Assembly (NCBI GenBank): GCA_008632985.1
Contig: QPGO01000001.1
Location: forward strand, 124,001-188,000
Direction of reading: 5' to 3'
Origin: Psammoneis japonica
Taxonomy: Eukaryota
Length of the DNA: 64,000 nt
Position 1 is the stretch's first letter. Every line of letters begins with the position of its first letter. Below are positions 10,531 through 48,695 of the stretch, in pieces. The notes beneath the pieces were generated by a model. It saw nothing but the letters and a program-made list of their open reading frames with translations. It made no database searches and was not told where the DNA came from. The position numbers and the translations under genes are program-made.

Positions 10531-12864
10531 GTGCATTCAACTGTTCTCTCTGCAAATGCGTCAACAAAACAAGGACAGGATGACATTGTCGGTGCCACAG
10601 CGGAGAGAAAAAGTCGTTTTGCATTCATCCACATCGCAGCAGCAGCATGGCAGTGGCCCACTTTGTTTGTCAAGTTTGGCCAGTTGTGCTTCCAATTTGG
10701 CACATGGCAGGAGGAATTGACATTCGTTCCATCACCACCACCATTGGCAGTGCCAGCGCCCTTGTTGTCACTGCCCTTGTCATCATTTTTCTTGTTGTCA
10801 GTGTTTGCGGGTGCCAAAGGAATGGTGGGTGCAAAGACATCCACATCTCCAAAGTCATCATTGTTGTCCACATTGTTGTTTTCATGATTCGTGCTGCTCA
10901 GCGGCACCGTCATTGTTGTTGCCACTCCCATCGTCATCGTCGTCATTCTTCTTGTCGCCATTGTCATTGTTCGTGGGTGCCGATGGAATGGTGGGCACAA
11001 ATGTGTCCACATCTTCAAAGTCATTGTCATTGTTGCTTGTGGCAGCACCCGGCACTGTGGGCAGGACAAAGACCTCTGCCGAAGGAACCGCAGGGATGTC
11101 CCCCTTGGGTGGTGGTTGGCAATTGATTTCTTGATCGACATTTTCTTGTGTCGCCACGGCAGCTCCCAACAAGCCTGTTCCACCGGCTGCTTGAACACTG
11201 CATCCGACCGGTGTTGCCATGGGTTGTGCAGGAGCACTGTCAGATTGAGACACGTGAGGTTTCCAATCCACTTCAAACAATTTGCAAATCTTTTCCAAAT
11301 GCATTTCCACCAAGGCTGCTGCAGGTGGTTGAACCGACAATTTGGAAATGACACGTTCATTCAAAACACCACCAACATTGTTCAGGGCAGTGTCTTCAAA
11401 GTCTTTTCCACATTTAGAACAAAATTGTTTTTCAATGAGTGGGAGCTCAGCAATGTCCACACAGTCACACACCCAAATGAGTGTGGATGCACACTGCACC
11501 AAATCTGGTGGACATGTTTTGGAATGTTCCAGTGATTTGATGCATTCAGCAAGCAGCTCACATTCGAGTTGCCTTCGGCACGAATTTTTGCCAATTCCTC
11601 CTTGGGTGGATCTTTGCTCAACATGACAGCGACTGCACGCATTTGTTGTTTGGTGACGAGGAAAGACAAACAAGTGCACTCAAGTGCACTTGATGTGCAC
11701 CCTTTTTTGTGCACCAGATGACCACGTAGAATTCTGCATGTGACTTCAGTCGCAAGTGCACTTTTCAGTCGTAAGCATGCTTTTTAGTGTGCTTTGTGTT
11801 CCATTCGACAAGTCCAACACAGCCATCATTTTCAACCCAGTTTCTTTCTCCCAGAGTTCTGCAACGCAGTTTTCTGTTGTCCGCAAAAGTGCAGGTGGTC
11901 AATTGCTTTGGTTGTTTGGCACTGTTTTGACCGCAACCAGATCATTGAAAAAGTGAAGATTCTGGAGCTTGGTGCATTTTCTGCGCATTCCTGCGCAAGT
12001 CGTGGCTTGGTCGCGAATGGCAAACTAAGTGCACCTTGATTTACAATTGTTGAGACTGGTTGATGCATCAATTTAAACCCATTTTTTTCTTCAAAAAATT
12101 CCATCATGTGTCACACAATGTGATGTGTGAGTTTTCATTGTCAATTGCTGTGGCCTTTTGGCACTGTCTTGATTGCAACCAGATCACCCAAAAAGCAAAG
12201 TTGGAGGTTCTTGGTGCATGTCCCACTCATTTCCACGCAGGTGGCGATTGATCAATTGAGTGCACTCTGTGTGTCACTGTGCTGAGTTTCTGTGCAGAAA
12301 GTGTTGTTGACGTCCAACACTGAGTCCCATGGAAACTCAGCAGAAATTCCTGTGCATTGCACACAACCGCACACAACTCAACCGAAATTGTCCATGGTGC
12401 AAAGTGCAGCCAACAAGGTGACTGCAGCCGCCATTGTCTGCCTTGATTTTTTCCCTGCACATCAATGTTTTTGTTTGTCATTTTGTGCATTTGTCACATT
12501 TGCATCATCTTTCGTTGTTTGTCTGATTCATTTGCCGTTGTTGCTGCAGTGCTGTTTCCGCTCTGTGTGCATGCAACACAAATCGCGCAAACATGTGGTG
12601 TTTCCACGCTGTACAAAATTTCTGTTGAATTCCACGTGTTCCACATCTTGCATTTGATTTGCCTTTCCCACCTTGTAAAGAAGCGCTGCAGCACTGCTTG
12701 GTGAGTGAAAACCCAATTTCTTCACAGTTGCACCATGTGGGCTGTTTGTCTGACCAACCTGTCAAATGTGGCACCCCAATTTTGTTTTTTACAGAGGACC
12801 ATCAGACACAGCCACAGACACTCTCATTCTTCCAGGGAAAGGAGAGCACCTGTTGCCACCACAA

Positions 12865-15800
12865 TGGATGGGGATGACTCACAAGATGATGGGAGAAGCT
12901 TGTCCCAGCATGAAGAATGTGCTCTGGACAGGAATTTTTTCTGCCAGTTTCTTTTGTCACAAGCAAAAATGGAGCAGATTCAGTCTCAGCAGAGGGCGAC
13001 TGAAATCTTCTGGGTGATGGAGGCTGAGGTCGGCTCCAGGCACACCCAGCCCAGGGTTCACCATGCAGAGGACAGGCACCCCTCAGCTGCTGCTTCTGAG
13101 GCTGTCAAGCCCCCTGTCATGAGCTCAAAAAAGGCTGTGGTGGAAGAGCATGAGTTTTCAAACTGCAAGATGCAGTGGCGGGCCAAAGGCTTGGGTGAAT
13201 TCTCCCCCACAACAGGCCGGGCAATGGGCACTTGCTCAACTGAAAAGTCCACAGATGGCTTGAGAAAAGTTTGCAAATGCTGCATGGGTGTCTTTGTTTG
13301 CTCCCTTTGTGGAGAGTTTCTTGAAAGGCCCCGGCAGCCTTGGACAGGAAGGAAGAAGTTTGGGTCACCACTCCCTCCCAAGCTGGTGTGCCCCAATCAT
13401 GAGCAAGAGTCAAAATTGGAGCACAAAGAGTGCACCTGCCTGCTGACCTGTCAAGAAGTCAGTGCCAACTCTTGGCTCATGAGCCACAAAGGGAGGCACA
13501 ACACCCAAGACCCCCACCATCGAAGCTCCCAATGGCAGCACAAGGAAAGCTTGTGGAGCTTGTTGTCAGAGCTGCTCCTGAGTTGACTCCAGCACAGCTG
13601 AGACTTGGGGCTGCAACCAGGCCTCGAGTGTCACAGATTCATCCAGCTCTTCACAACAAAGACCATGTGAAAAACATGAGGAAGAAGATCTTAAAGGAAA
13701 CAGGGATGAGCTCCACCATTGCCAGCCTTGTGAACTTCCAAAAGGAAGTGAACCAGAGCTTCATTGTTTCGGAGCAGCTCACCACAGATGATGCTCACAT
13801 TGTCATGCAAGACCAAGACATGATTGACATGCTGAGAGAACCAGCATCACCCATGCAAACCAACTCTGTGGAGGGATTTGTTGTTGATGCAGACTTCCAG
13901 AGGCAGATCAATGTCACCTTCTCTTTGCAGTTTGATGCAATGTTGCAGCAGTGGGCCCCAGTCTGCATTTCCATCTTGTTTGGCAAAACTTCTGCACACT
14001 GCAAAGCCCACTGGCGCAGGGTGCTTCAGTGCTGCCAGGCCAACACCTGGGATGATTTTTTGAACAACTTCCAAGGAAACACAAGCGACTTTTCTGATGC
14101 CATTTGAAATGGCTTCTTTGCAGCCATGCAGGAGCTTGCACTTGAGCACCATGACAGGGAAGCCACAGATGAGGAGATTGCCCAGTTTTACAACTTTTGT
14201 GACGTTCACTTTGAGAGGTCCCGCATGAGGGTGGCCAGAAACTCTGCTGTTGACATTCCAGACAGGGAGGATGACTTCAACCACCATGTCAACAGCTTGA
14301 GGGGTTTTGGCCAAGGAGACTTTGCTCAGTTTGAAAAGTCCTGCAAGCTGCTCATCAGATCTTGCCCAAATGCCAAGTCATGGCTGAAGTTTGAAAAGTC
14401 CTGCAAGCTGCTCATCAGATCTTGCCCAAATGCTGAGTCATGGCTGAAGTGGTTTCTCAACCCAAGGAGGGCAAGGATTTTCTTTCCTGCACGCGCAGGC
14501 AGCTGGATGAGCTGCAGCAGCAGAGGCATGAAAAGCTCTGCACAGACACAAATGCACAGGAAAATGTTGGCAAACAGTTTCAGTGCAGTGCACCAAAGAC
14601 CAATTTGACCATTGGAGAAGCAGTTCTGCATGCTTTCAAGTTCTGCAATGCGAATGTCTTTGACAGAAAGGCAGCAGCCAGGGGAATTTCACGCCATTGT
14701 GGAGCTTTCAAGACCATCCAGTCAGGCTGCAAGAAGCCCAAGAGCAAAAGAAAGCAAGGGAAAAAAACAAATGATGGAAGAGCACCAGACACCACAAAGC
14801 AGCTGACAAGGCCAAAAAAGAAGCCTGCACCCAAAAAGACGCCAGGAGAGGCAGCAAAGAAGCAGGCAGGAGGCACCATGAAGCAAACAAGGATCAAGTT
14901 CAAGACCCAATCATCAAAGAAAACTGCACCCAGGCATGCTGTGACCTCATTCCAAGGCATCCCATGGAATGTGCCCAGCAAAGGAGACCATCCTGGCATC
15001 AACAACACTTGCAGGCTGGACAGCTTGTTGACTTTGCTGTTCTCACTTCACAAGCAGCAGCTGATGAAAAAGCCAATGGTGGAGCTGGCTGATCCAGACA
15101 ACCTCCTGTCCAAGACATTCAGCTTGATGGAAAAGGGTGAGTTTGATGATGCCAGGCACCTTTGGGTGAGTGACAATTCTGTTCTCAAGGACATGAATCG
15201 CGAAATCAGAAAGAGCCGGTTTGCCAAGTTCAACATGTTTGGGTCACTCTTTGAGGTTTTTGGCCCACCAGTCAGTCCAGGAGCTCCCTTCCCAATGAGC
15301 CAGTCATTTCAAGCCTGCTTTGATTTCTTTGAAAAGTGTGTTGCAGGTGACTCTTGGTGTCCTTCATGCTTCTCTGATGAGGATGAAGATGGGCGTCCAA
15401 GGAAAAAGATCTTCAACACATTCCCCATTTCAGAATTTGACAGCGCCAGCCACTGCCTCCAAACTTGCCTTGAGAGTGACTTGCAGAAGTGTGGGAACTT
15501 TCAAGGTGGTGTTGGTGAGGGTGAGGATGCAGTGATGGTTGCAAGTGACACCCCAGAGGAGAGGCAATGCTGCAGATTCCTGAACACCACTGAAAAAGTC
15601 ATCACGAAGTTCCCACACCTGATGGTTTTTACAAGCAACCCAAAACCCGGTTTTTCACTTGGAGATTTGGAGACAGAGTTTTCCCTTTGTGGGAAACAGT
15701 TTGGCTTGAGAGGGACCTTGAATGGAGATGGTGGAGTTCACTTCACTTCATGCATCAGAGGAGAGGCAAGCTGGATCTTTTGTGATGGAATTGGGGATGA

Positions 15801-16396
15801 TTTCCCTGTCTGGGAGAGGTGGATGTTTCGCGAACAAGACCAGGTTCTTCAGGGAGAGCACAGCTCCCAGATGGCCATGGCCACAGTGTGTGAGGTCTCA
15901 GACTTGGAGGTTGGAGAGGAGAACATCAAGCCAGGGGAGCAAGAGCAAAGCAAGCCAGGAGAGGAGGAAGAGCATTTGGAGATTGGAAAGGAAAGCAACA
16001 AGCCAGGGATGCAAGAGCAAAGCAAGCCAGGAGAGGAAAAGCAAGGCAAGCAACACAAGAGAAAGAGAGTGGCCTTGGGCAATGGTGCAATCAAGTGGAA
16101 ACAAGTGGCCAGAGCAGTCAATCAGGGAGAAGGGCAAGAAAGGGGGGAGATTGCCAACATGCAGGGGCTGCGGCCAGCTCCTCTCTCAGAATGAAAACAG
16201 GCTTCTCTGCGCCTTTCATGAGAAAAAAGGACACAAGCTCAAGACAGAATGGCAGCTGCACTGCAGGCTGACATGCATTGATGGCAAATTGGATGAGAGC
16301 AATCTCTTCAAAAATTGTTTGAAAAAGGGGAGCACCAAGCAGTTCGAGACCTTCAAGGGCAGCTTCAGCAGGCTGCCAAAAATGTGCAGCATGTGA
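12865..16396 (+). pseudogene. MULE transposase: GCM-like zinc DNA-binding domain + DDE core + USP-like cysteine-peptidase region
   Basis: KCCMGVFVCSLCG...RP...CPNH...C...HKGRHxHPRPP (GCM-like); MQTNS, TSDFSDA, FCDVHF (CxxH), TDTNAQE (catalytic E), NDGRAPDT; NNTCRLDS and GVHFTSCIR...WIFCDG. Spread over frameshifted ORFs 12705, 13430, 14126 and 14440. Confidence 0.78.
14328..14450. repeat. 60-bp tandem duplication inside the transposase
   Basis: Two copies identical except CA (14374-75) vs TG (14434-35). Confidence 0.95.
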
Positions 16397-17411
16397 TTTG
16401 AGGCTGAGGTTTTCAAGTTTTCTGCAAACAACAACTCTTTTCTTTGTCCAATTTAGAACTGCTTTGTCTGCACATTGTTGGCTTTTGTCATGTTCATTGG
16501 AGCCTTGTCCACTGCTTGGCGCAATGCATTTCATCATTTGCTGGCACACACCTGCATGGAATGTATGGCACAGTGCACAACACACTTGCAAAATTTGTCC
16601 ATGCTGCAGCTGGTGTGGTCCCACGCAGAAATGCATGCAGGGTCATGGTGCACTCAAGTGCACTTGAAGTGCACTTGACAAGGTGCACTTTTTTGACTTT
16701 TCTTTTTGACGACGGCCATTTTTTTTGTTGGACGCAATTTGAAAACGACTCGATGCCATTTTTAATTCTGCAGGAGCAGAGTTTGAGAGAGAAGGAGCAT
16801 GAGAGAGTGTGTGCATGAGAGAGCGTGCATGTGTGCATGCATGTGTTGCAACAAAAGCATGTTGGCGATGGCAACAGCATGCGTGTGAATTGCAACAATG
16901 GTTTCACAATCGGTGCTTGACTCATGCAACAACATGAAGAATCAACCCCCAGCATGTCAATGCCGAGCATGACAATGATGTGTTCCACTCACGCAGCTTT
17001 AATTTCTTGGCAGAAAACCCTCCAAACATGGCAGTTGTTGTTGTTGTTGATTTGTGCTGGCGTTGTTGTTGTTTTTCAAGTTTTTTTTTAGTTGTGGGAT
17101 TCTTCAGCGAGGTGATGATTTGTGGCTGGAATTGCATGACTCAAAAATCGTCTGCGAACGCAAGGCGAATGGATGCAAAAAAACTCTCTCTCTCTCTCTT
17201 GCTCTGTGTCTGCCGCATGCTCTCCATTGAACAAATTACCCCGCACAGTGGTTGCGTGCTCTAGAGGGTAAAGACCAAAACTAAAACATGTGACATGGTG
17301 CCTCCATTTCTCAGAATTGTGATGCTTGTCTCGGATGGACTTCGGTCTGCTCATTTTGCCGACGTGGGGCACACATCACTGAATTTCACATCTCCACATG
17401 GCAAATTCTTC

Positions 17412-18690
17412 AGTCCCCTCAAGTCAATGAAGTGGACAATGAATTGGCTTGATCCAGTTTGCTCTCTCTGGCCATGTTTGGCCATGCCAATGTGACAAGG
17501 AAACCCCAACAACCTGCTCTCTAAACCCCATGGTGCATGAGGGTGCCGGTGCAATGCCAAACCTTGGTCATTGTTGATGTTGTGCAATGTCATGCCTGCG
17601 AGTCCATCTCACTTGATGCCACCACACATGATCTCAGTCGCAAGATCAGCTGGGTTGCATTCTGATCAAATGTGGATGCGCTCCAGCTCTGGGTGGGACC
17701 TCGCACTGCTGCACTGTGACATCAACAGTTTTTTGGATCGCGTTGCATGTCGCGCACGTGCATTTCTGCATGTCACATTCTCCGAAATTGTTTCATGCTC
17801 CCTGTTTTGCAAAGCCAAAGGCTTTCCATTTTCAACATTTGTGAGAATGAAAATGCACTGGGTGTGTTCTTCAATGTCTGAAGAACACACCCGGGCAAAC
17901 TGTCAATGATGTGCTCCAAGTGTGGAGGAGGAAATGCATTTGCAAAATTGCCTCTTTTTCTGTTGGCGATCATTTGTGTTTTCATTGCAGCATGAATTTG
18001 CTGTGGAGCTTGCACGTAGAATTCTGTGGGCCAAATGTCTCATGCAGCCCCACCTTGGACTGGAACCCGTCTGTGTCCAGTGAGTGACTCACCCATTGCT
18101 GCCATTTCTCTCATGGTGTGGCGGCATGCTGATTTCGACTTCTTCTTCAAAGTTGACTCTGGGCTTTGGGTGTTGTGGACAACTGACATGTTGTCACCAC
18201 AAATGTGCGATGGACCACTCAGCAGTGCACCCATCATTCTAAGCTCATGCCTTGGACCTCGCAAAGCTTCCATGCCCTGCTTCACAGCCACAAACTCAGC
18301 TCCAAAGACTGAGGTCTCAATGGCACTCTGTCACTCAGAAAACCAGGCAACCAATGCCATGTTTAAATGTGCAAAGCAGCCCACACAGGAGCATCTTGTC
18401 AGCTTGTCATTGGCATGGTTGGAATGCACAAACAAGTGTGGGTCAACATCTTCACCCAGAGCTTCTGGTGCATTGGGCAGAACAGCTTCCTTCACATCCC
18501 CACAAAATGCCTTCCTGCCGCATTCCTTGAAGTCAGACATGTCCATTTCCGGGTGTGTCAGATCAAACACCAGCCTTGCATCATGTCTGGCCTTGAGGCA
18601 TCCACACACATGCAGGATGGCCTCAAGATGGCCCTCCCTTGGCACAGTGAGGAATTGGGCAAGCTGTGAGGTGTGCAGCTGGAAGCGCTT
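17412..18690 (-). mobile_element. Second Copia (CoDi-like) fragment: RT end, RNase H, PPT and LTR start; interrupted by a MITE
   Basis: PREGHLEA, RLVFD, FVHSNHAND, ETSVFGAEF, ICGDNMSVV, PESTLKKK, GH|I*SECNPADLAT. PPT gaggggac followed by TG at 17412 on the minus strand. Confidence 0.9.
17674..18072. mobile_element. MITE copy A (399 bp, ~26-bp TIR, 2-bp TSD gt), TA-depleted
   Basis: Ends ggatgcgctccagctctgggtgggac / gccccaccttggactggaacccgtct. Excision with one TSD restores the Copia RNase H frame. Termini are homologous to 46956-47347. Confidence 0.88.
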
Positions 18691-19574
18691 GCACAGCAGG
18701 TGCCAGGCACCCTGCAAAAACACCAGAGTTGTTTCTGAGCAACTTGTCTGAGGCCATTTTGTCTTTTGGAGCCAAAGTGCAGGCATGGCATTGGTGGTGC
18801 CAGAGATGTCTCAAAACCATGTGAACCAATGAGCCAACAAAAATGCTTGCGCATGATGACGCATCAGAGGAAGGAACTGTTTGGGTTCAGTGTCCATGTG
18901 GGTTTCTGCTTGTTTCCTGCAGCTTTTTGTAATTGTCATTTAGGTTGTGCAACTTTTAATGTAGATTTCCACCTGCTTCCACTGGCACAAGTGCATGCTG
19001 AGCTGTCCAGAGAATGCCATCATTTTGTTCCCTTGTGTGTGTGCCACTCACACAAGGGAATTGTCAGACTGAAAGAAAAGCCACAAAGTCACCTTGGCCC
19101 AGCCAGCCCTCTCTGCCATGTCTGCACAGGATGGGCATTTTGAGCCAAAGGCCATGGACAAGCAAAGGTTGCTCCATGCTAAAAACACAACACTTGAAGA
19201 AATTGCTTTTGTGAAACACATGCTGGAGCTGGGAGAAGTTTGTGACAAGGAGCTCTCCAGAAAAGAAGAATTGGTGTGTGCTGCAGCTGCAGCAGAAAGT
19301 TGGCTGCTGCATGACCAATGTGGGCAAACTTGAGTGGCCAGATCCCACTCCTGTTGAATCTCAGGCACAAGCTCATGTGAAAGGAGGTGGCCAGAAAACA
19401 CCCACCTATCTGGTGGCAGCATGCAAGCAAGTGCGGTGCCTTGCTGGAAGAAGATCAAGCTGAAACCAAGGGCTTGTGCAATGCCTCAAGAAGAGGCCAA
19501 AGTCAAGGAAGGGAGATGATTTGACACCAAACCCAATGCACCACCGCAACTGCTAATCCAGCATTTCATGTCAT

Positions 19575-21150
19575 CAAAAATTAACAGCTGGCAGTGATGG
19601 ATCTGTCAAAGACGTCGCCACCTTTGGGTGGACGATTGCTCCAGATGGAACACCACTGGAGGATTGTGCGGGACCAGCATTTGGCAGAAGACCATCATCA
19701 CACCGGGCAGAGGCTTGTGGCATTTTGTCCCTTCTTTGATTCATTTGCCGGTTCATGGAACATTGCAGAGTGGAGAGGCTTCTGGAAATGGAGCCGCACT
19801 GCAACAACAAAAGCTTTGGTGTCTTGTCTCGAACAACTCACCACAATCCTTCCAGCTCCAACCTCAGAGTGACAAACAGATGAAACAAGAGATTTCCATG
19901 TCAGACATCATGGAGCCAACAGTGTGTCTCCTGACTGGGATGTCATTGATCAGATTCTACGCACACAGCTTGAGATGAAGAGGAAACTTGTAACCAACTC
20001 GTTTGCACAGCCGCCACCTGTCAAATGGGTGAAGGGCCATCAAGATTGGCATGCTCCAATGCATGCCCTGCCCCTCAATGCTAGAGTCAATGTCTGAGCG
20101 GACCAATTGGCAGGGGCATGCCAAGGCCAGTGCCCTTGGGATGCCACAATGGCACTGCCCTTTCCAAATTGTCACTCACATTTGAGTCTCCCAGATGGCA
20201 CATTGACCGCAGGTTGCAAACATCATCTCAGACACGCGGCCACCACCCCACAATTGCTGCAATGCATCATTGAACACAATCAGTGGAGTCCAGGGCCAGA
20301 GGTGACAGAGCTGATTGACTGGGATGCTCATGCCATCCTCATAAAACGTCATTCCAAATGACACGTCGGAACAGTCAAGCCAGTTCACGATCTTCTCCCC
20401 ACTGATGAGATCGTCCATCAATGCAACTCGGCAAGACCTCACCAGTGTCTTCATTGTGAGCATCCCATGGAAGATGGGAACCATGTGCTCCACTGTCTGC
20501 ACAATGAATCATGGCAAAGAAAGTTTCTGCAAGGTTTGAGGAGGTGTTGTGACCAAATCGACACCATGCCAACCCTTCGGGACTTCTTGTCACAGTCCAT
20601 TGAAGCATGGTTTCACAGTGAGATGGTTTGTCTTGAAGATGTTGATTGCAGATGCAGAGTTCTGTGGCAGGCTCAATCCGATGTGGGGTGGTGGCAAGTG
20701 TTTGGTGGAAGGCATTCCCTTCTGTGGAATGTCATTCAATCTGGATGTCTGAGAGATTCTGGGATCCTTCGTCAGTGCCAGGAGGAGAACAAACATCCAC
20801 CGAACTGGACAGTGCAGATGGGAACGTTCATCTGGCAGCAATGGCGGGAATCGTGGGAAGAGCATGACAAACACATCCACGGCCATGATGCAGAAACTGG
20901 ACAATCTTCGCAGAGATGCAAAGTGGAGGCTGAGCTGACAGCTGCATGCAACAAATGTCAGGAATGCTTGGCAAAAGACCGAGGAGTTCTGCTTGATTCT
21001 GTGGCAGAACACAAGACCTTTGCCACTGCACGCACACAAAATTGGATTTCTGTGGTTGAGCCCAGACTTAAGGAAAGCCTCAAGGAAGCCAAGAGGCCAG
21101 TGACATGCAGCACATGCACCATTGCCAGTCATTTCCATCGGGCATCTCCT
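19575..21150 (+). mobile_element. Non-LTR retrotransposon 3' remnant (RNase H + C-terminal CCHC region)
   Basis: SDGSVK..TFGW, CAGPAFG, SSHRAEACG (from SSYRAExYG), WVKGHQD, IDWDAH, VHDLLPT, CLHCEHPMEDGNHVLHC. Frameshifted. Confidence 0.82.
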
Positions 21151-21921
21151 CCGGGAGACACCGCTTCATGCCAATTGCACACACTTCTGCTGCACCTCCA
21201 AGCAGGGTTTGCTGGAAGTGTGGGTTAGCTGGCACTGGTGTTGCTGGGCAAAGGTGCAACAGCACTTGAAATGATTGATTTGGTTTTTTTTGACACTGCA
21301 ACCACTCCTGCCAGAGTCAAAGAATGACATCCCAAGAAGAAGCTGAATTCAAAGATGGGTGATGACCCGATGCCACAGCCGCTCCTGCCAGAGCCAGAGA
21401 GTGAAAACCCTGGTGCCCCACCAGCCAGGCAACAGCAGCATCTAAGATGTGCTCTCCCACCTGTGTCATGAGATTCAGCTCCAGGTGGGACCTTGTGCAG
21501 CTGGACTGGTCTTTGGACATGTGCCACATGTTGCTTGCTCACACTTGTGTGCATGTTCTCCCACAAAATTTCCCGTGCTCCTTCCTGCTCTGAGGGGGGG
21601 ACAAAGGCTTTTTAATCCATGCATTTGTGAGAGTCAAAATCAGCCAGGTGTTGGTTGTGGCATCTGTTCTGTCATGTTCTCAATGGGAGTCATTCGGGCC
21701 CTCACAGCCATTGTGTGTAAATTACATGGGAGAGCGCCAGAAATGGCTGTCGAAATCGGCACAAAACGTAGAGTAATCCGTAATCATAACCACACTTTAC
21801 TTTCTTGGCTGCCCCCTCAGACTCCCCAGAACTCGCAAACGCGCAAGCATTTGTATATGACCAATAAAGCAAGGGCCAAAATAGTGGTTTGTTTGAAAAG
21901 ATTGACTTTACTGTTAAGCAG

Positions 21922-24570: not shown

Positions 24571-24619
24571 TGATGCTGGTTGTTGCTTCGATTTGACAGC
24601 CTGCATTTTGCCGCCCCCA

Positions 24620-38300: not shown

Positions 38301-38399
38301 GAGTTTTCAAAAGCAGCGCATGATGAAATGAACTTTTGGTGAAGACAAGCACATGTGAACAATTTTTTGTCAAGCTTTGTGTTGCTGACATCCAAATCC

Positions 38400-40260
38400 A
38401 CTTTTGCTGCATTTTCCCATTTCTTTTCATGGGATTTGGAGTTTTTGTGCAAGGAACATGATGGGCCAGTGGTGATGGCATCGAGTTCATTCCATTGAGT
38501 TGGATTTGTTGTTGAAGGTGCGGCGCACAAATTGTGAGAATGGAGCATCAACAAGACGGATTTTTGTGTTGTGCTGCTCTGCTTCTTTGGCACTGTTTCT
38601 CACTTTTGTCATCATTTCGATGTTTGTGCTGTGAGGTGTCTGTGAGGCTTGGGTTTTTTTGGTGCTGACTTGCTCTTCAGAGCTTGTCGTTGAATGATCA
38701 AAATTGAGTTTCAACTGGAATGTGTGGTCAAGAGTTGGTGGCGGTGACATGTCAACACCTTTTTGGCAGATTTTTGTGGTTCTTGTTTCATTTTCAATGA
38801 AAGCTGCACAAAGAATCTGATGGGCTTTTGGTTTTGTTGTGCAAAATTTCATTTTGCAGATGGGTTTGTCCCAAATGATGCTTCAATTGGAAGAGACACT
38901 CCAGCAATGTCATTGATTGAAAAAGGAAGACTGCAAGCTGCAGCTCCACCTTGTTGTTGGAAAAATGAGGTCATGTGGAAGCACTGTCAAGCCATGGCAT
39001 TTGCAAAGACACAGCCCCAGTGGAAATGGGCAGGACCTGCAAACATGATCACTCAGAATGGATGAGGAATGTTGTGGCAAAGCCAAAGTCAAATTGAGTT
39101 TTCCACTCTTGCACTGCTCTCTGCGGGCCTCTGTTGAGCCTCCAGTGACAACTTGCAAGTGGTGCTGGGGCCTGCCTTTAGATTCATCCACCATTTGATG
39201 TTGCGGGGGGTGTTTGAAGTGGCCTCTGGTTGGCAAACTCTTGTTCACATTGACAAGTCACTCCATCAAGAAATGACATGAGTGCAGTCAAGGTTGGTTT
39301 TTAGATGGCATGCTCTCCATTGTGTTGTTGCAAAAATCAGAGCTGCAATGCACCATGCAACAAATTGGTTGCTTCCTCTGCAAATGCATGGAAGGTGCAG
39401 TCGCCAAAGAGGGGCAAGGGTTGGTGCAACGTGTGGAGCTCAACTGAGGAGTGCAACATGGGCTGCATTCCCAGGACAATGTGGAGGCAGATGGAAAGAA
39501 TGCAACTTGGAGCGCAGCTGTGTGGGGTCTGGTGCTTGTCCTCCTGCAACATTGCCAGGGGGCACAGACACCGACTTCTGCTGCATCAACCTGTGGCACC
39601 CTCCATGACACACAGGGGTTGAGACAATGCAAAAAGGAAATGATCATGACAATGGCCTGCTTTGCATTGCTGACATCTGCACCTGCTTTTGCTGCATTTT
39701 CCTGTTTCTTTTTGCATCATTTTGGAGATCATGTGCACAAGGAACATGGTGGGCCAGTGGTGCTTGTGTTGAGTTCATTCCATTGAGTCAGATTTGTTTC
39801 CAAAGGTGTGGCACACAAATTGTGAGAATGGAGCATCAACATGGCTGATGGATTTTTGTGAGATGTGCCATTGTGTCTTTGGCATTGTTTCTCTCTTCTT
39901 GTCATCATTTTGACATTTGTGCTGTGAGGTGTCTGCGGAGCTTTGGTTTTTTGGCGCTGACTTGCTCTTCAGAGCTCATTGTTGAATGATCAAAATTGAG
40001 CTTCAGCTGGAATTTGTCTTCAAGAATTGGCACTGGTGACATCTCAACATCTCTTTGGCAGACATTTGTGGCTCTTGTTTCATTTTCAATGGAAGCTGCG
40101 CAAGGAATGAGGTGGGGCTGGTTTCATCACAATGAAAATCTGCTCCACAGATGGGTTTGTCCCAAATGATGCTTCAACTGGGAGGGTCACTCCAGCAGTG
40201 TCATCAATTGAAAAAGGAAGACTGCAAGCTGCGACCCCACCTTGTTGTCAGAAAAATGAG
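38400..40260. repeat. ~560-bp direct repeat pair (38400-38970 and 39685-40260)
   Basis: caaggaacatg.tgggccagtggtg...gagttcattccattgagt...gttgaatgatcaaaattgag...gaaaaaggaagactgcaagctgc is present twice. Confidence 0.88.
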
Positions 40261-41097
40261 CCACCTTGCCATCGATGTCACAGTTCCCAAAACACCTCTG
40301 CTTGGATCTCCTGACATGCCTGACCTTGCCTGAGACACCACAACCAAGGCACACCATGTGAGTGCAAAACGTGGAAGTTCCGTGGAACTCGTGAAACTCA
40401 AGACAGCACCGCCACAATTGCCTCCCTCAACAAAGTTGGCATTTGCCTTGTGCCACTTGCCGCTGACCATCTCAGCACCCCCGGATGCTTTGCTCACCAC
40501 CTGCTCTTCAAAGCCAAGTTCCAACCAAGGTCACCCCCTCTCTTCTCCTCCTCCACCACCGCCCTGGAGCTCAGAGCCCTCCTTCCAACACCCAGCTGTG
40601 TGTGCTGCCTGTGCCAGCACCAACACCCAACTCTCTCCATCTGACCTCCTTCCTGCTGCTGCAGCTTCCTGGACTGCCAGATTTGAGCTCAAACCCACCA
40701 TGCAACCACTCCCACTCAATGGGGCCTCCAGAGCCTCAGCCCAACCATCAAAAAATCCCTTGCTGCTGACCAACTTCTCTGCCGCTCCTCCAAACTCCAT
40801 GTGCCCAACTTGCTGCTCCCACCCCCAGAACCCATCCGTTCCCCACCCACATGATGCACCACGTCATCTGTGCCTCACACCGAACCACTCTAGAGGTGAC
40901 GTGGCACATGAACTTCTCACAGGCACGCACTCCACTCTGGAGCCAGAGAGCAGAGAGGCAGTCACCTTAACAACAAAACAAAGCGAAAAATTAAAAACAC
41001 ACCATGACACCGGTGCAATGAACGCGATGCGCTTTCTACAACGAAAATAACTACAAAAATACAGTGATGCAAACGGATGAAACACAAACATACATTT

Positions 41098-43512
41098 CTA
41101 ATTGTCGTTTACCGTGAATGCGTACGTAGATCCAGATTGCCTGCCATTGACGTCAGCCAACGGTGCACCAACTCCGACGACGCTTCCGTCGGCCAACAAG
41201 GACACGGAATGTCCAAAATAATCACCTGCAGCCTCGCCATTCAAAGGATCTCCAACTTGCTTCCATTCATCTGCAATGCTGTCGTGCTGAAAGATTCGAA
41301 CTTGACCCGCCTTGTCCAATCCATTGATTCCGACTGCCAAGACGTTTCCATTGCCACTCAACGACACTGAGTATCCAAAACCATCACGAGGATGTTGTGT
41401 CAAGAGAGTTTGGCCACGTTGATTCCAAGTCGAAGTCGAGCGGTCGTGCGAATAAACCAAAACTCTCTCGTTGTTAAATCCAGGTGCTCCCACGGCCACG
41501 ATCAAACCGCTGTCGTCAAGAGAAATAGAATGTCCAAACAAACCATCAATGACTTGTCCATTGATTCGATCACCCAACAGATCCCATCTTGACGAGGCAG
41601 AATTGTATTCATACACCAACACTTGGCCAGCATGGGTTCCACCTGAATCATTGTAAAGCGCTCCAACGCCAACAATGGTTCCCTGCACATTCAAGGAAAT
41701 GGAAACACCAAAATGATCATCAGCAGCTTGGCCAATGAGTGTTTGTCCGAGTTGGTTCCAGGATGAAGAGCCGTGGTTGTATTGAAACAATTGAACCGAT
41801 CCAGAATCAGAGCCATTATCTGTGTCATCACCCCGTGCTCCCACGGCAAGAATGTCTCCCGAGTCCGAGAGCGACACGGAAGAACCAAACCAATCAACAG
41901 CGTCTTGTCCAAGAATGTCGCTGCCGAGTTGGACCCAACGATCCGATGCCGAGTTGTATTCAAACACACGAACGTGACCGGCATTCGTTCCGCCACTGTC
42001 ATTTGCATCAGCTCCAACCGCAAGAATTGTGCCGTCGCCATTTAACGAAACAGAATTGCCAAAATCGTCATGATCGGCTTGTCCAATCAATTCTTGGCCA
42101 ATTTGTATCCATTGTTGGGTACTTGGATTGTATTGTTGCACAACAACATAGCCGGGATTGGAGGAAAAATCATCCCATTGATTCGCTCCGACAGCCATGA
42201 CACTGCCATCACTAGACAAGGAGACGGATTTGCCAAAACGATCACTTGCAGCTTTGCCGTGCAAGACTTGGCCGACGGGATTCCACGAACCGTTTTGCGG
42301 AAAAGTTGGATCCTCTTCACCAACTGCAACAAAAGCATGTTGGGCACTCGCACCGAAATCACCCGATCCGTCTACCAGGAGTTTACTTTCATCCGTTGTG
42401 TCAGCGCTGTCGTAGAGCTTGTAGTAGCCGCCAACGATTCCGTCACCCCCCGTGTCGAAAATGTTAAACAGACATTCTTTTGCGCGAACAACGTCGATTT
42501 GCGCGGAGACAAGGCTGTTTGGTTTGCCCCCATACGTGCCAGGAGGAAAGGCAATGAGCTCCATTGCATCACAGTCCACTTCCCATCCAGTCTCTTCCGG
42601 TTTGTTGTCCAACTGGATGACGACTGATACGACCGTTGTTGCTAGTCGTGCGGCGTCTTTCTTTGTAGCTTGGATGGCAACCACTGCAATTACTGCCGCA
42701 AGGATAAACATCGCCACAATCAGAATGAGTCGCCTCCAACGTCGTGTTTCCGTTGTTGCTTCGTCACTGCTCTTGTTCCCTACCGCCACAACTCCCTCTG
42801 CCGCGACAGCTGACTCAGCCAAGACACGACGAATCTGCAAGTCAATGTTCTCCCCTTGCGCGTCGTCGGCTACCTCGGCTGCAATAGGAAAAGAGAGAGG
42901 CGAGGTATCATCTGGCAAATCCGACCCCGAAAACATTCCAGCATCATCCAGCTCTTGATATGGAACGCGCCCACTATCAGTTCTGTCTCCCTCCGTATAC
43001 GCTCCAGGACTCGAAGGCGCCCGAGACGGTGCCGATTCAATATCTCTTCTTTCGTCGGTGTCACCAGAGTATGCCAGCATGGTCACACCCGGAGTATCAA
43101 AAACATCTGCATGCTTGTGTCTCTTCGTGTGCAGCACATCTGCTGCACTATCTCCTTCGTGTGCCGGTACACCCGCAAACTCAGGAACGCCGCCATCACC
43201 TGAATCGAGATACTGCTTCTTGTCCACAATAACCCTCTTCTTGGCTGCACTTCCTTTCATGTCGTTGCGATTGGTTGGAGAGGGGGGATACCCAACTTGA
43301 CGGGGACGACGACGACGACTTTGCTTGGACTTGCTGCTTGGTGGGGATTCCCATGATCCATCAGGCTTCACCATGGAAAACTCTTCTGGACGACTGCTAA
43401 TTCCCTCGTCGTTCGATTTCTGCGTTGCAAAATCATGGGGCAACGACGGAGGCAACGACGAAACCTCATCTGGTTCCTCTCCAACGCGCCCGGATGGATG
43501 ACGGTGTGACAT
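41098..43512 (-). CDS. Single-pass membrane protein with FG-GAP (integrin-alpha-like) beta-propeller, paralog 1 (804 aa)
   Basis: Intact ORF. Disordered N-terminus with PGAY; TM LILIVAMFILAAVIAVVAI after RRWRR; small extra domain (LDNKPEETGW...DTGGDGI); seven FGxSVSLSxDGxxxAVGA repeats. Confidence 0.92.
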   Translation of the reverse strand: MSHRHPSGRVGEEPDEVSSLPPSLPHDFATQKSNDEGISSRPEEFSMVKPDGSWESPPSSKSKQSRRRRPRQVGYPPSPTNRNDMKGSAAKKRVIVDKKQYLDSGDGGVPEFAGVPAHEGDSAADVLHTKRHKHADVFDTPGVTMLAYSGDTDERRDIESAPSRAPSSPGAYTEGDRTDSGRVPYQELDDAGMFSGSDLPDDTSPLSFPIAAEVADDAQGENIDLQIRRVLAESAVAAEGVVAVGNKSSDEATTETRRWRRLILIVAMFILAAVIAVVAIQATKKDAARLATTVVSVVIQLDNKPEETGWEVDCDAMELIAFPPGTYGGKPNSLVSAQIDVVRAKECLFNIFDTGGDGIVGGYYKLYDSADTTDESKLLVDGSGDFGASAQHAFVAVGEEDPTFPQNGSWNPVGQVLHGKAASDRFGKSVSLSSDGSVMAVGANQWDDFSSNPGYVVVQQYNPSTQQWIQIGQELIGQADHDDFGNSVSLNGDGTILAVGADANDSGGTNAGHVRVFEYNSASDRWVQLGSDILGQDAVDWFGSSVSLSDSGDILAVGARGDDTDNGSDSGSVQLFQYNHGSSSWNQLGQTLIGQAADDHFGVSISLNVQGTIVGVGALYNDSGGTHAGQVLVYEYNSASSRWDLLGDRINGQVIDGLFGHSISLDDSGLIVAVGAPGFNNERVLVYSHDRSTSTWNQRGQTLLTQHPRDGFGYSVSLSGNGNVLAVGINGLDKAGQVRIFQHDSIADEWKQVGDPLNGEAAGDYFGHSVSLLADGSVVGVGAPLADVNGRQSGSTYAFTVNDN

Positions 43513-43569
43513 GTGGTGATGAACGAGCCAAAACCTGCTGCAGCGCGCATAGTGAGAATAATAATAATA

Positions 43570-44091
43570 ATCATGTTGGAACTGCTGATGGGACTTCTCA
43601 AAGTACGATTCTTGAATGATTGGTTGACAAGACTTACCGCAGATAGTTGATGTGATTGTGACTAACTTATCGCTTTCAATGCTGCTGTTCGCTTGTCGCT
43701 TTCAATGCAATCGTATTCTTCTTTTGTTTTCTGTGTGAGAAGGTTCGGGCAAAAACGAAGAAGAGGAAGAATCATGTTGGAACTGCTGATGGGACTGCTC
43801 AAAGTACAATTAATAAATGATTGTTTGACAAGACTTACCGCAGATAGTTGATCTGATGGTGACTTCCTTATCGCTTTCAATGCTGCTGTCGCTTCCAATG
43901 CAATCGTATGTTCTTCTTCTGTTTTCTTTATGAGAACGTTGGGGCGAAAAGGAAGAAGGAGAAGAAGAAGAGTCATGTTGGAACTGTTGATGGGACTGCT
44001 CAAAGTACAATTCTTAAACGATTGTTTGACAAGACTTACCGCAGATGTTGATCTGATGGTGACTTCCTTATCGCTTTCAATGCTGCTGTCG
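43570..44091. repeat. 201-bp tandem repeat (~2.6 copies) immediately upstream of propeller gene 1
   Basis: catgttggaactg at 43572, 43773 and 43974; ttgacaagacttaccgcagat three times. TA retained. Confidence 0.92.
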
Positions 44092-44422
44092 CTAACCTTC
44101 CCAATTCTCGCGTGACTCCTTGTAGAAGCCACAGCCTCTCTGGTACAGCATGTATCGAAAAAGAGGGTACCAGCTACCAGCGCAAGTGGTGTTCTCGTTT
44201 TATCTGACGCTGACACGATATGAGTGCCGAGTGCCTGTTGTACACGCAGGAGTTGACGTCATCGTTGACACGAGAGTTCGGGTAACCTCATTGCTGCTCC
44301 TGCTCCAATAACATGTATGACAGCATGAGTGTCAGTGTGCATCGACTCCATTGCAGCGGATGTTTCGCTCTCGATGTAAGCGCTGTGAGCTATGCGTCGT
44401 CGTCATGGTGGGTGTCTTGTTA

Positions 44423-46129
44423 CTACAAATTGCTAAACACTTGGCAAAAACGCGCGTAAAGCTCCTTCGTTCGCCCTCTGAAGGGAAAATTTCTCTTCGT
44501 TGCGATTTTGTACCAGAGCCCTGTAGAAATGTACAGCGCAAAGTCTTGCCGCTTTGAGACTCACAAACTCCCCCCGACAACACAACACGGTGAAGCACGG
44601 GAATGTATCCGACAATGGCGGTACCTATTATCATCGATGCTGCAGCTCTTAACCACTCTCCCTTGCTTCAGCATGCTCTTAACGGCAACAAAATAGAGCT
44701 GTGGTGTTTGCTTTGTTTCCGTTGGCGCTTTCACTCACATTTGTTCTCTGTTTGCGCTATTTTGACATCCCGGTTGGCGTTTCGCGTAGTGTTTGCTTTT
44801 GTTCAGTGGCATTGAGGCTTAAGTTGTCTTTCAACAACCAAAGCTTGTGAAAGCTGTTTGAATGTTGATTACACGGTGTTGCAGTGTGGGTGTTCGAGGT
44901 GGTGGAAGGGCCACAAATGGCTCGCGCTCAAGAAAAACAATTGATCGCATGACTCGTCTTTCTCATGACTGGGATCTTGAACCGGGGAATGCAGTCCACA
45001 AAGCGAAATGACAGATAGATGCGCCAGAAGGTAGAGTTCAATTTTGTTGAAGAAATTGAGTGCAAGGCACGGGAGTGCAAACATGACCTTTTTTCTGTCG
45101 GCAGAGCGAGTGGCTCGCTCTCAACTCTTTGTGTCGCAAATCGAAGAAGAGAGCAGAAGTTTCTGTCTTGTAGTTTTAAAGGTAATAGATCTGAGAACTG
45201 TGGCAGCATTGTAAAGGATCAGCTGGAATGCTTGTCATCGACAGAGTTTAAAAATGCAGCATCGTGCATTTGCGACACCTGACACCGGTTGAACACTGTC
45301 CTCTTGTGGCATTGTAGTGCTGTGTCTTACAACTTTTTGCTGCCAACATTAAGCTAACTAAAGATTTCTCTAGTTTTCTTTCATCAGAGAGGGAAAGTCG
45401 GCAGAGCATCCGAAGAGAAACATCAAAGACAACTTTTTTGCATCCAGCTTTCATCCGACTTTTGTCTTCTGGTTTTGCACCCCATTTCTCTGATTCTCTT
45501 TAGCAGATGCCATGCTTGCCTCTATATGTTCAAGTTCAAAATGACTGTAGTGTATCATTCATTCATCAACAGTGTTCAACTCAGCAATCATTCGCAACCC
45601 GCCACCGGCAAAAAGGGTGGCGAGACAATCACACACGAAGCAGCCTCCAGAGGAATCTTCAACTGGTCAACTGCCAACTTTTTGTACCTACATCCAATAA
45701 ACCGATTGTCCCGGGAATGGCACAATTGAATTGAGCTTCTATTGGCGAATCGCGACGACAGTGTGACGCATCCCTTGCAACACTGGCAAGAGGAAACCCA
45801 CGATGCTTTTTTGACTTGGACCTCAACTTCAATGCACTTGCTTCGATCAAAACCACATCACCTGTCATACATGCAGGTCTAATTGACCGTACTACATGAT
45901 CGTAGTGACAGAAAGTGCGGTGAAGGGTGGCGCCATTGTCGCAAACTACCGACGGCGTTTCACGCATTGTCTCGTGTTGTTCAGCGAGAGGCGCGAGTGA
46001 CGCGTCGGAGGGAGTTTCTGTAGAATTCTACGTGGACTGGTACAATCGTTCAACGAATGGAAATTTTCCCTTCAGAGGCGAACGAAGGTGCTTTACGCGC
46101 GTTTTTGCCAAGTGTTTAGCAATTTGTAG
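44423..46129. mobile_element. Non-autonomous TIR element with TA target-site duplication (Tc1/mariner-like)
   Basis: ~110-bp TIR ctacaaattgctaaacacttggcaaaaacgcgcgtaaagc... and its reverse complement ending at 46129; TA at 44421-22 and 46130-31. No recognisable transposase. Confidence 0.88.
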
Positions 46130-46789
46130 TATTATTGGCGCTGAGTTTAGACTACCGGTGTGTTCTGGGTGTCCCCACGCAATCGGGGTGGAGGTGGCAC
46201 GGACGGACGAAGGCACAAAACCACAGCATGCTGTAGCGCTTGGTACAAAATTACGTGCGTACTTCACCGTGTTAAAAACTGGAAACCACGGCGAAAGCAC
46301 GAAGGAAAGAGACAATCTATTTCCTGCCCTGTTTAACACTGGGACGTATCTTGACTTCACATGCTGATTCAACAGACACACTTGACAATAAGCAATGATC
46401 GTCTACTGAAAGAATCTACTTTATCAGTCATTTAGACCCTCACAAAATGTCTCCAGTTAATTGCTGGCGATTTGCGCGGCAATTTGGCGAGCGATTCACC
46501 GTACTTTACCGTGGTGAAACAAGGATTGTCCAACATTTTCGATTTAACAACAGCAGCCCACTTCACTGTGCAGGGAACTGGCCAAGCATGACTCAGGAAT
46601 GAAGTTGGAGCCACTCAATTTAAGAGTTGACAAAAAAACGAAAATGGCTTGACTTGGAACCCTGATGGAGCCACAAAGTGCACAAGATGTGAGCATCGCT
46701 GGTCTCTTGCAAGTGGTGGCCGCGGCGAGGAGCAGAACAAAGCAAGACACACCAGAAGCAGCAGCATGACATTGCTGAGTTTGGCAAAT

Positions 46790-48695
46790 CATGCATCCAC
46801 CCCACCCCCACCCCACATGGGATCAGTTGACATTTTGCCACCAGCGCTGTTGGCACTGGATCTACCGTCCTTGTTGTCACTGACACCGCTCTTGTTGTCA
46901 CTCTTCTTGTTGTTGCCATCATTTGTGGTTGCTGACAGAGGGTGCAAAGATGTTGAGACGCGTTCCAGGTCTAGGTGGGACCTCGTGCTACTGAACTGTG
47001 ACATCGATAGTTTTTTGAATCACGTCGTATGTCGCGCACGTAGATTTCTACGTGATTTCTTCGATATTTTGTGTCATTTTACGGTACACTTATTGAGCGA
47101 TCCGTCCAACAACTTTTGACATTTTTTGTTACAGCGCGATTCTATAATGTCTTAAGAATCGCGTAGGGCAGGCGCATTTGCAGAAACGTCGAGTGGCAAG
47201 AGGCATAATTGTACCACAAACTTGGCAGTTCATTTGATGTTGAAGATAAATATATCCATTAATTAAATTCTAGCACTGCGGAGCTCGCACGTAGAATTCT
47301 ACGGGCCCAATGTCACACGGAGTCCCACCTAGGACTGGAACCCGTCTTGACATCTCCAATGTTGCCATCGCGTTTGCTGTCCCTGCCATTGTCAATTGCT
47401 GCTGCAGCAGCAGCAGCAGCAGGTGCTGTCAGCAGGACAAAAACATCTGTGAAAGGGTTGGGTGGTTTTGGTTGGCAGCTGGTTTCCCCATCAATGTTTT
47501 CTTTTGTCTTGTCATGGCTGCAACTGGCAAGCCTGCCTCGCCTGCCAGCCACTTGGACATTGCATCCAGCAGGTGCTGCCCCAGGTTTTTTGCCAAAGCA
47601 CTGTCAAATTGCAACACCCACAGACTCCACTGCACCTCAAACAAGGTGCAAATCTTTTCCAAATGTGCTTCCACCAAGAAGCCCAGTGTGGTTTCCAAAT
47701 GTGCTTCCATCTCAAGGCCAATGTGGGTGGTTCTTACGTGGATGATTTGGGAATGACATGCTTGCTCAAGCACCAACGTCATTGAGGGCAGTGTCTTCAA
47801 AGTCTTTGCTGTGTTTGGAGTGAAACTGGTTTTTGATTGGAGGCAATTTTGGCAATGTCCATGCAATCACATGCTCAACAGGAGGAGTTGTTGCAGCTCT
47901 CAGAGTCATTGTGCAGAAATTGTGCAGGACACAGCACCACACCACAAATGGTTGTTGTCACAGTCAGTCTGTCTGTCTGCATCTGAGCATCAACTTCTTG
48001 GGAAATCAATTGAAGTGTCATCTGATCAAAGGTGCTGCTCTTTGCCATGTGACCAAAACTGCCTCTTTGGTCAGATGACATTTCAGCTGAGTTCCCGCAA
48101 AGTTGGCAGCTCTGATCACTCTCTCACATGACATTGTGTGCATTTCTGCATGATTTTGCATTTTTCCTCATGAAAAATGTCAATTGTGACTGATGCAATG
48201 TTTTTGAATGACTCCCATTGCTGCTCAACAAATCATTGTGGAAACACACAACCACAAATCAGGTGGGCACACATCTTGGGATGTTCCAACAACTTGGTGT
48301 ACTCCACCAACAACTTGCATTTGAGCTGCACAGTTTTGCTTGCTGCAGCGGCATTGTTCTTTCCAAAATCAGAGCTTCGGCACAAACTCTTTCCAGGTCC
48401 TCCTTGGGCGGATCTTTGCTCGACATGAAAATTTGAAAAGGGCTCAATGCCATTTTCAATTCTGAGGAAAGTGTGAAAGAGAAGGCAAGAGAAGGAGTCA
48501 GGAGCATGAAAGAGGGAGCACACAAGAGTGCGCGAGCTTGTGCAGCAGCAACAACAGCGAGCCAACAACGCTCTTTGCAAGCAGCGCAACTCGACTGGTC
48601 GTCACGATGCAGCAACAACATTGAAAAAATTCAAACCACACTGTGTGTCCACAACAACAGCACAATCGCACTGATGGGTGGACTCCTCCAAACAT
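46790..48695 (-). pseudogene. IST1: IST1 pseudogene copy 2, more degenerate, with MITE insertion
   Basis: MFGG (ATG 48695), intron, ELKMALSPFQI, SKDPPKEDLERVCAEALI, VQLKCKLLVEYTKLLEH, CDCMDIA, LVEAHLEKICTLFEVQW, GDV|NIFAP; colinear with copy 1. Confidence 0.82.
46956..47347. mobile_element. MITE copy B (392 bp, ~26-bp TIR, 2-bp TSD tg), not TA-depleted
   Basis: agacgcgttccaggtctaggtgggac / gtcccacctaggactggaacccgtct. The empty site gcaaagacatccacatctcc is seen in IST1 copy 1 (10831-10850). Confidence 0.92.

Follow-up and report, generated by a model that had tools for sequence, protein, structure and literature searches.

Two broken copies of IST1, an ESCRT-III gene, lie in a stretch of 64,000 nucleotides (nt) of contig QPGO01000001.1, which we call the window. 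Both are on one strand, as a sequence-only reading of this DNA had proposed, namely the minus strand, and Pfam (for copy 1), tblastn and blastn agree on them. Copy 1 occupies 10.6-17.15 kb with its ATG at 17029, and copy 2 occupies 46.6-48.85 kb with its ATG at 48695. The window is eukaryotic and has an observed/expected ratio (o/e) of 0.21 for the dinucleotide TA and of 0.54 for CG. Blocks at 3-21, 23-28, 32-41 and 60-64 kb, 36,004 nt in total, which we call erased, have a TA o/e of 0.06 and a CG o/e of 0.24, with TG and CA at about 1.77; the normal blocks, 19,503 nt in total, have a TA o/e of 0.47 and a CG o/e of 1.02. The closest protein relatives of the IST1 open reading frame (ORF) of copy 1 come from diatoms (91 of 125 candidates match at E<=0.001, the top one being 75% identical), and the host, to judge from the best IST1 matches, would be a diatom-like stramenopile.

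Anatomy of the two IST1 copies

Copy 1 begins with a 5' flank or 5' untranslated region (17030-17147) that it has in common with positions 48696-48800 of copy 2 (local alignment z 6.9 against shuffles). Exon 1 (16993-17029, MFGGFSAKKLKL) matches the N-terminus of the diatom IST1 protein P0001 and is followed by intron 1 (16768-16992, 225 nt), which has the splice borders GT...AG (GTGAGT...CAG) and holds no TA in the 219 nt counted (16775-16993); splicing it out restores KLK-L-QLKMA. The first part of exon 2 (QLKMASSRFQIASNKK..., 16705-16767), placed by tblastn and by reading, ends at a transposon, beyond which the gene continues from 11658 as KQQMRAVAVMLSKDPPKEELAKIRAE, and the remainder, recognized by Pfam and tblastn, covers 10636-11658. 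Here the ORF at 10882-11679 matches the Pfam family Ist1 (PF03398) with 70.5 bits against a cut-off of 33.6 (E 2e-19, profile positions 63-163 of 164), and diatom IST1 proteins match by tblastn at 16771-16721, 11651-11574 and 11571-10900. The reading frame is broken by the transposon in exon 2, by a 43-nt deletion between 11573 and 11572, by an extra A and by a premature stop that follows an internal repeat of the motif DF.DVD.F.PTIP. Copy 1 has 4 TA in 1,505 nt against 103 expected, and TG and CA occur in it 172 and 169 times, respectively. At 10815-11030 it carries two C-terminal DF.DVD.F.PTIP.AP motifs, whereas its orthologues and copy 2 carry one.

The transposon is a DNA element of 5,046 bp (11659-16704, plus strand), recognized by its inverted ends, target duplication and composition. 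Its ends (11659-11723 and 16703-16641) are inverted repeats of about 65-70 nt, 75% identical over 69 nt and containing GTGCAC motifs, and it is bordered by a 10-bp target-site duplication, the second copy of which lies at 11649-11658 (TTTGGTGACG vs. TTTGACGACG at 16705-16714, 8 of 10 letters matching). The ORFs of the element are on the plus strand, and it has 14 TA against 334 expected (o/e 0.04). Within it lies a 60-nt tandem repeat (14328-14387 and 14388-14447) whose units are 97% identical and differ solely at one dinucleotide, which is CA in one of them and TG in its neighbour; a single ancestral TA resolved on opposite strands would give this pattern.

The sequence-only reading had copy 1 split by a Mutator-like element (MULE). 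The split by a transposon with inverted ends and a 10-bp duplication stands, but Pfam did not confirm the family. Hallmarks of MULEs, namely a target duplication of about 9-11 bp and long terminal inverted repeats, are present; the element behaves like one of Mutator type, and the label is plausible, with family membership putative. The Pfam MULE domain PF10551 was found in none of 5 ORFs of the element at E<=10, in none of 7 of its relatives at E<=1 and in none of 20 long relatives at E<=0.01. A language-model look-alike search pointed, as no more than a lead, to MULE/ZSWIM clusters (0.92); a profile of the element family matched the GCM1 structure 1odh_A in the PDB weakly (E 0.013), and sub-threshold Pfam GCM matches occur in 5 of the 20 long relatives and in 1 of the 7 near ones. 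A word search with the longest ORFs of the element gave these 7 near relatives, and a profile search gave 1,667 representatives at E<=0.001; by eye the family has the motifs DSVEGF, ISILFGK, FPGNTSDFSDA, FCDVHF.RS and TNAQEN in common. For the transposase-like protein of the element, weak GCM-finger matches were all that Pfam yielded. Among the relatives P0093-P0244, one has a Ulp1 protease domain and three have PHD fingers. The element can be compared with the Mutator-like elements with a WRKY-GCM1 zinc finger of Babu et al. (2006; PMC1702500). As far as the accessible text of that study goes, it is like them in its 10-bp target duplication and long inverted ends, and in a possible GCM-like finger at the N-terminus, ahead of a transposase-like domain whose motifs, judged by eye, are D..D..CxxH..E-like, and it is unlike them in that PF10551 is unmatched in its ORFs and in the 27 relatives scanned. 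Pfam, the PDB profile search and the relatives gave no firm superfamily assignment for the element.

Copy 2 is a TA-free island at 46622-48854 on the minus strand, as delimited by TA positions, counts per 100 nt and composition. Its ORFs have no Pfam match at E<=0.01, and it was recognized by tblastn pieces with diatom IST1 (48471-48231, 47903-47772, 47698-47627 and 47588-47535) and by blastn with copy 1 (69-85% identity). Alignment places a relic of exon 1 at 48665-48695 and a relic of intron 1 at 48462-48664; the 5' splice site was removed by a deletion of about 10 nt, the 3' CAG (48464-48462) is kept, and exon 2 begins at 48461. A 52-nt deletion between 48431 and 48430, seen in alignment to copy 1, spans the point at which the transposon entered copy 1, with 22 nt on one side and 30 nt on the other. 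It may be an excision scar, in which case copy 2 would once have carried the element; by our rough, post hoc estimate, a deletion would cover a given point in about 1.5 kb by chance in about 3% of cases. Several frameshifts and stops and two insertions complete the damage to the reading frame. The first insertion (47881-48221), recognized by its composition and repeats, is of 341 bp between perfect 9-bp repeats TGCTCAACA (47872-47880 and 48222-48230), and has no TA, one CG and an internal hairpin at 47991-48105. GT..AG-like ends can be drawn on it, and we rejected it as a second intron; it is absent from copy 1, and the gene is uninterrupted there in the metagenome loci L026, L027 and L007.

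The second insertion in copy 2 is a miniature inverted-repeat transposable element (MITE), as had been claimed. It is 390 bp long (46957-47346), non-coding, has 40-nt inverted ends that are 83% complementary, and lies within a perfect duplication of TTGA (46953-46956 and 47347-47350). It is unmutated, with 26 TA (o/e 0.88). When the MITE and one TTGA are taken out, GDVNIFAP of copy 2 aligns with GDVDVFAP of copy 1. Another copy of the same family at 17666-18081 is TA-erased, having 1 TA against 28 expected, and in 171 aligned end columns it has 7 of 9 TA and 8 of 16 CG of the clean MITE converted. Without its MITE, copy 2 has 4 TA in 1,839 nt against 124 expected, at 46863, 47735, 48300 and 48731 only. 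The TA depletion that the earlier reading ascribed to both copies is thus severe, with 4 TA left in each (o/e 0.03-0.04) and an o/e of 1.6-2.1 for TG and CA.

Homology between the copies extends from 17147/48800, which lies 118 nt before the ATG of copy 1 and 105 nt before that of copy 2, down to about 10636/46755. Intron 1 is retained in both, as had been noticed, in copy 2 as the body and the 3' CAG. A processed pseudogene is ruled out by this intron, and the intron together with some 105-118 nt of 5' flank in each copy indicates that they are duplicates made at the DNA level, as previously supposed. Three other diatom-like metagenome loci, on four contigs (L026/L027, L034 and L007), have an intron at this codon, and L049/L043, L023 and L039 have none there; this survey took in 8 of 58 metagenome loci, the longer ones being chosen.

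A third IST1 locus and the spectrum of change

We aligned contigs from three runs of one sample to positions 10400-17300 of the window, at a likeness of at least 80%. Copy 1 itself is among them without any difference (records 1, 3 and 7), and so is another IST1 locus. One X1 contig of that locus (record 2, 1,791 nt) aligned to 10907-11333 with 54 differing letters, and one X2 contig (record 8) to 10907-11149, with 35 differing letters, and to 11216-11547, with 44 differing letters and no gaps. A further X2 contig (record 9, 306 nt) runs from 17059 to 16996 and, after 3 bridging letters, from 16767 to 16720; another 4 letters bridge it to 11658, and at 11573/11572 it contains 43 letters more than copy 1. 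At the GT/AG borders of intron 1 of copy 1 its join is exact, and by our reading the bridging letters give KLKPQLKM and NKKTAVTKQQMR, which fit the orthologues. The joint from 11658 to 16720, that is, a gene lacking the transposon, is found in X1 and X2 contigs; an X1 contig extends 73 letters or more to either side of that site, which on the exon 2 side takes it some 25 nt into the intron and hints that intron 1 is present in the genomic parent.

The third locus is a candidate for the parent of copy 1. It is free of the transposon and contains the 43 nt deleted from copy 1, and at the listed sites diatom-conserved IST1 residues reappear in it (I>V, M>T, H>Y and H>R). In X2 it is apparently spliced. 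A search for its protein among the 91 IST1 matches, with 7 peptide words specific to a copy or to the parent, met with none of these words; P0001, the best match (75%), was rejected as the parent protein and is a relative. The contigs of the other locus have a word depth of about 55-66, compared with 32-36 for those of copy 1, depth being a poor measure. Copy 1 may be confined to one haplotype, or there may be differences between its haplotypes. The contig of the other locus skips 10624-10906, a region near the doubled motif of copy 1, and two X1 contigs end at 11658/11659. Microsatellites of (GA)n/(CT)n flank copy 1 at 10100-10180 and 17185-17200, and contigs break at 17173-17213. Altogether, 305 X1 contigs match the 10400-17300 stretch, chiefly the element, from which they differ by 521 transitions and 161 transversions.

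At 76 places X2 differs from copy 1, and written from window to read the changes are C>T 15, G>A 19, A>G 11, T>C 13 and transversions 18. Taken from the parent candidate to copy 1, they become 34 A:T>G:C, 24 G:C>A:T and 18 transversions, with A:T>G:C as the largest class. The sequence context was listed for 32 of about 97 differences from the other locus, of which 11 are at TpA (6 becoming CA and 5 becoming TG), 7 at CpG and 14 elsewhere; 11 of the 16 listed A:T>G:C transitions are at TpA. In the 182 nt at 10938-11119, where the listing appears complete away from contig ends, all 8 TA of the parent candidate are changed in copy 1, 4 to CA, 3 to TG and 1 to CG, compared with 4 of 10 CG and 12 of 146 other bases. 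Counting changes of TA to TG or CA against the parent candidate, along the lines that the sequence-only reading had recommended, shows the changes in copy 1 to be concentrated at TA. That reading would have fallen had the parent been equally poor in TA or the changes not been enriched there; the parent candidate keeps its 8 TA in 182 nt, and the enrichment is evident.

The copies were also compared with each other in 740 reliably aligned columns, with 2000 column shuffles as the null. They are 71.5% identical and differ by 145 transitions and 66 transversions. At 23 places a TG in one copy faces a CA in the other, when the shuffles gave 3.95 +/- 1.87 such doublets with a maximum of 12, so that none of the 2000 reached 23. 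These doublets indicate ancestral TA (or CG) resolved on opposite strands in each copy after separation, and the alignment shows in this way that the two copies were mutated independently, on both strands. The same is seen in codons. None of the four conserved Tyr codons that the alignment retains survives in either copy, three of the positions having Cys or His in each; in copy 1 Y128 has become TGT and in copy 2 CAC, the conserved R125 behaves likewise, and the position of Y160 is Ala, the mapping of copy 2 there being unreliable. Loss of CpG is less complete than that of TA and is weak in the intron and the 5' part of copy 2, which suggests a separate, slower process such as deamination of 5-methylcytosine. 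Beyond the hotspots, the copies carry 8-9% of other change.

Across 10000-18000, 106 stop-to-stop ORFs of at least 50 amino acids overlap 8 kb of DNA in six frames, and Tyr is nearly absent from their translations. Long false ORFs arise in erased DNA because the stop codons that contain TA have been erased, and such DNA is a trap for gene callers and annotation.

How copy 2 relates to copy 1 and to the parent candidate was approached at 23 reliably aligned sites at which copy 1 and the other locus differ. Copy 2 agrees with copy 1 at 11, with the other locus at 7 and has a third base at 5, a mixed pattern that, on these alignments, would settle neither descent from the lineage of copy 1 nor descent from the parent. 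The common 5' limit, the 52-nt deletion at the transposon site and the end of exon 1, where both copies have CTGC/GTGC and the parent has CCTC, speak for placing copy 2 in the lineage of copy 1. Counting against this, copy 2 holds the 43 nt missing from copy 1, and its transversions to copy 1 (66 in 740) are about three times as frequent as those between copy 1 and the parent candidate (18 in about 811 nt).

Tract limits, controls and competing explanations

The island of copy 2 stands in normal DNA. Its flanks have 56 TA in 1,601 nt and 62 in 1,641 nt, or 3-6 TA per 100 nt, and at the edges of the tract TA density changes ten-fold in one step. The island extends past the alignable homology by about 55 nt on the 5' side and about 135 nt on the 3' side. 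Since the transposon of copy 1 and the 341-bp insert of copy 2 were themselves erased, both were in place when the process acted; the MITE, with its near-normal TA, was inserted after the erasure or escapes the process.

Intact duplicates in the same window served as controls. They are four FG-GAP/Kelch repeat genes and a repeat-protein gene, all tandem duplicates. One control segment at 49081-51718 keeps its TA and is 83.7% identical to its partner at 56582-59215; another example pair is 41090-42285 and 50507-51706. Control pairs are 81.6-84.8% identical over 1.2-2.5 kb, with a TA o/e of 0.27-0.48, and they have 2.0-5.0 TG/CA doublets per kb vs. 31 per kb in the IST1 pair. Furthermore, the DNA at 43.5-46.6 kb has no ORF of at least 200 amino acids and has normal TA. 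It follows that neither repetition at 81-85% identity nor non-coding status explains the erasure. The FG-GAP/Kelch family occupies 41098-43512, 50513-53113, 53468-55522 and 58004-60022 on the minus strand, and the gene of ...GNVTSIHGGDDD... repeats, at 49086-50081 and 56582-57004, is duplicated at 81-85% identity; TA and CG are normal in all of these. A repeat of 60-90 nt occurs beside the FG-GAP genes and directly past the 5' end of copy 2 (48931-49021, 57976-58057, 50507-50567 and 41067-41132).

What was observed directly is how the copies are built, in which direction and context their bases changed, that each was hit independently, and that the tract has sharp edges. With these observations we consider it probable that these are two dead DNA-level duplicates of IST1 rewritten by TpA-directed hypermutation. 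After their separation, each copy would have had its TpA turned into TpG or CpA on either DNA strand, by an A:T-to-G:C change for which adenine deamination in DNA would be the simplest chemistry, and a slower, partial decay of CpG to TpG or CpA would have accompanied it. Such a process would have struck exons, intron, flank and resident transposons alike, and it would have spared the third IST1 locus, the neighbouring genes and the later-inserted MITE. A mark of silent or repeat-classified DNA, and not foreign origin or repetition alone, would then direct it. The earlier claim that the retained intron shows editing to have occurred on DNA holds in its conclusion and not in its argument. The intron alone is no proof, because unspliced RNA could be edited too; the process is assigned to DNA because the two strands were hit about equally (6 TA to CA vs. 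5 TA to TG) and because the upstream flank and DNA transposons were erased.

Several points weigh against this explanation. The spectrum with context covers the 32 listed differences, 14 of which are at neither TA nor CG, and the non-hotspot changes are not polarised in direction. Two of three control pairs have doublet counts slightly above their own shuffles (4 vs. 1.0 and 6 vs. 1.7). Copy 1 lies inside an 18-kb erased block, so that tract limits are visible for copy 2 only. As for the third locus, X2 is labelled 'DNA?', and the intron-less contig could be a genomic retrocopy and not a transcript; the locus could also be an allele of copy 1. Its flanks are not on the window, and its word depth, put at about 58-66, is nearly double that of the copy 1 contigs.

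Repeat-induced point mutation (RIP) of Neurospora and other ascomycetes changes C to T mainly at CpA, creates TpA and mutates all copies of a duplication. A RIP-like process, in which duplicated DNA is sensed by pairing and mutated, and the parent survives because cells with a mutated parent die, would explain why the tract of copy 2 agrees in extent with the duplicated unit, give or take about 55-135 nt, and why multi-copy transposons were erased. The likeness extends to dense transition hypermutation in repeated or duplicated DNA, with sharp limits and inactivated copies, and diatoms have DNMT4, which is related to RID, the RIP enzyme of fungi, and whose function is given as unknown in the accessible text of PMC9998398. 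We nevertheless hold it unlikely, given that the other IST1 locus keeps its TA, that paralogue segments of 1.2-2.5 kb elsewhere in the window, at 81-85% identity, are untouched, as is the multi-copy MITE within the tract, and that the chemistry is reversed, with TpA removed and not created and A:T>G:C the largest class (34 of 76). Somewhat less probable still is an origin as cargo, in which a mobile element, such as a gene-capturing one of Mutator type, carried the IST1 copies and drew the mutation onto them by being treated as a transposon. The common 5' limit of homology (17147 and 48800), the Mutator-like element within copy 1 and the deletion of copy 2 that spans the same point, weighed by its post hoc chance of about 3%, agree with such an origin. 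A carrier element, which the sequence-only reading had suggested tracing through shared flanks, was not found, however, at the ends of the copy 2 tract: no terminal repeats, inverted or direct, were found there (best matches 10 nt, E 0.19), and within the window its flanks match nothing else except the short gene-associated repeat described above.

A reading without any targeted process, in which old pseudogenes simply decayed neutrally under a context bias of the whole genome, would be compatible with the under-representation of TA even in normal blocks (o/e 0.47) and with the 8-9% of non-hotspot change. The ten-fold step at the tract edges, the normal TA of the ORF-poor DNA at 43.5-46.6 kb, the o/e of 0.88 of the MITE within the tract and the loss of 8 of 8 TA against 8% of other bases make it very improbable. 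ADAR-type enzymes prefer a 5' U, and the A>G changes in TA context could recall A-to-I editing of double-stranded RNA that was later copied back into DNA. This we disfavour most strongly of all and hardly credit, as the intron and upstream flank are present and erased, the strands are about equally affected (also in the TG and CA counts of copy 1), DNA transposons are erased together with their inverted ends, and the tracts span many kb across elements on both strands.

Comparison with known systems and significance

TpA-directed hypermutation of IST1 resembles a process in Bigelowiella natans, where, in the accessible text of Mettrop et al. (bioRxiv 10.64898/2026.01.13.699255), TpA-restricted hypermutation affects integrated giant-virus and virophage DNA, adenine deamination is proposed, and the process is read as a defence against foreign DNA. 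As there, A:T changes to G:C at TpA to give TpG or CpA depending on the strand, and TpA is depleted and CpA plus TpG enriched in clustered tracts, neighbouring host DNA being spared; in our window this pattern is found in the 36 kb of depleted blocks. Unlike B. natans, which is a chlorarachniophyte, the host here would be an unrelated, diatom-like alga, and the targets are duplicates of a host gene and DNA transposons instead of viral inserts. Erasure is also deeper, with a TA o/e of 0.03-0.06 vs. 0.45 in the B. natans region of nucleocytoplasmic large DNA virus (NCLDV) origin, and CpG is depleted and other changes are present here, vs. a near-exclusive TpA pattern there. These extra changes may be ordinary decay over a longer time. 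The B. natans process is marked, too, by an elevated de novo rate in mutation-accumulation lines (Mettrop et al., 10.64898/2026.01.13.699255).

As unprocessed, duplicative pseudogenes do, the IST1 copies keep an intron and flank and have suffered frameshifts, deletions and transposon insertions; unlike in such pseudogenes, one dinucleotide-specific process dominates the decay and not a general spectrum. The sparing of one IST1 locus and of the intact paralogue duplicates separates them from RIP. We found no report of TpA hypermutation or RIP in diatoms in the literature searched, and the only printed account of TpA-specific DNA hypermutation there, as far as its accessible text goes, is the 2026 B. 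natans preprint (10.64898/2026.01.13.699255).

Here the TpA signature occurs in a diatom-like alga and on duplicates of an ordinary host gene. The case is informative in having an intact, apparently spliced copy as outgroup, a tract that fits one pseudogene in normal DNA, and internal controls that were spared, which together argue that the target is set by the state of the DNA, dead or silent, and not by foreignness or repetition alone. Targeting defined by state is open to direct test at three short loci. More tentatively, and with somewhat less than even confidence, we propose that a genome-defence system with adenine chemistry recognises DNA that the cell treats as dead or repeated, even where this is a duplicate of a host gene, and erases every TpA on both strands, with edges precise to less than 100 bp, sparing the expressed parent and intact paralogues. 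If this were true, the choice of target would come from an epigenetic or small-RNA mark and not from foreignness or homology as such, and the trio of IST1 loci would be a ready reporter for both the mark and the deaminase.

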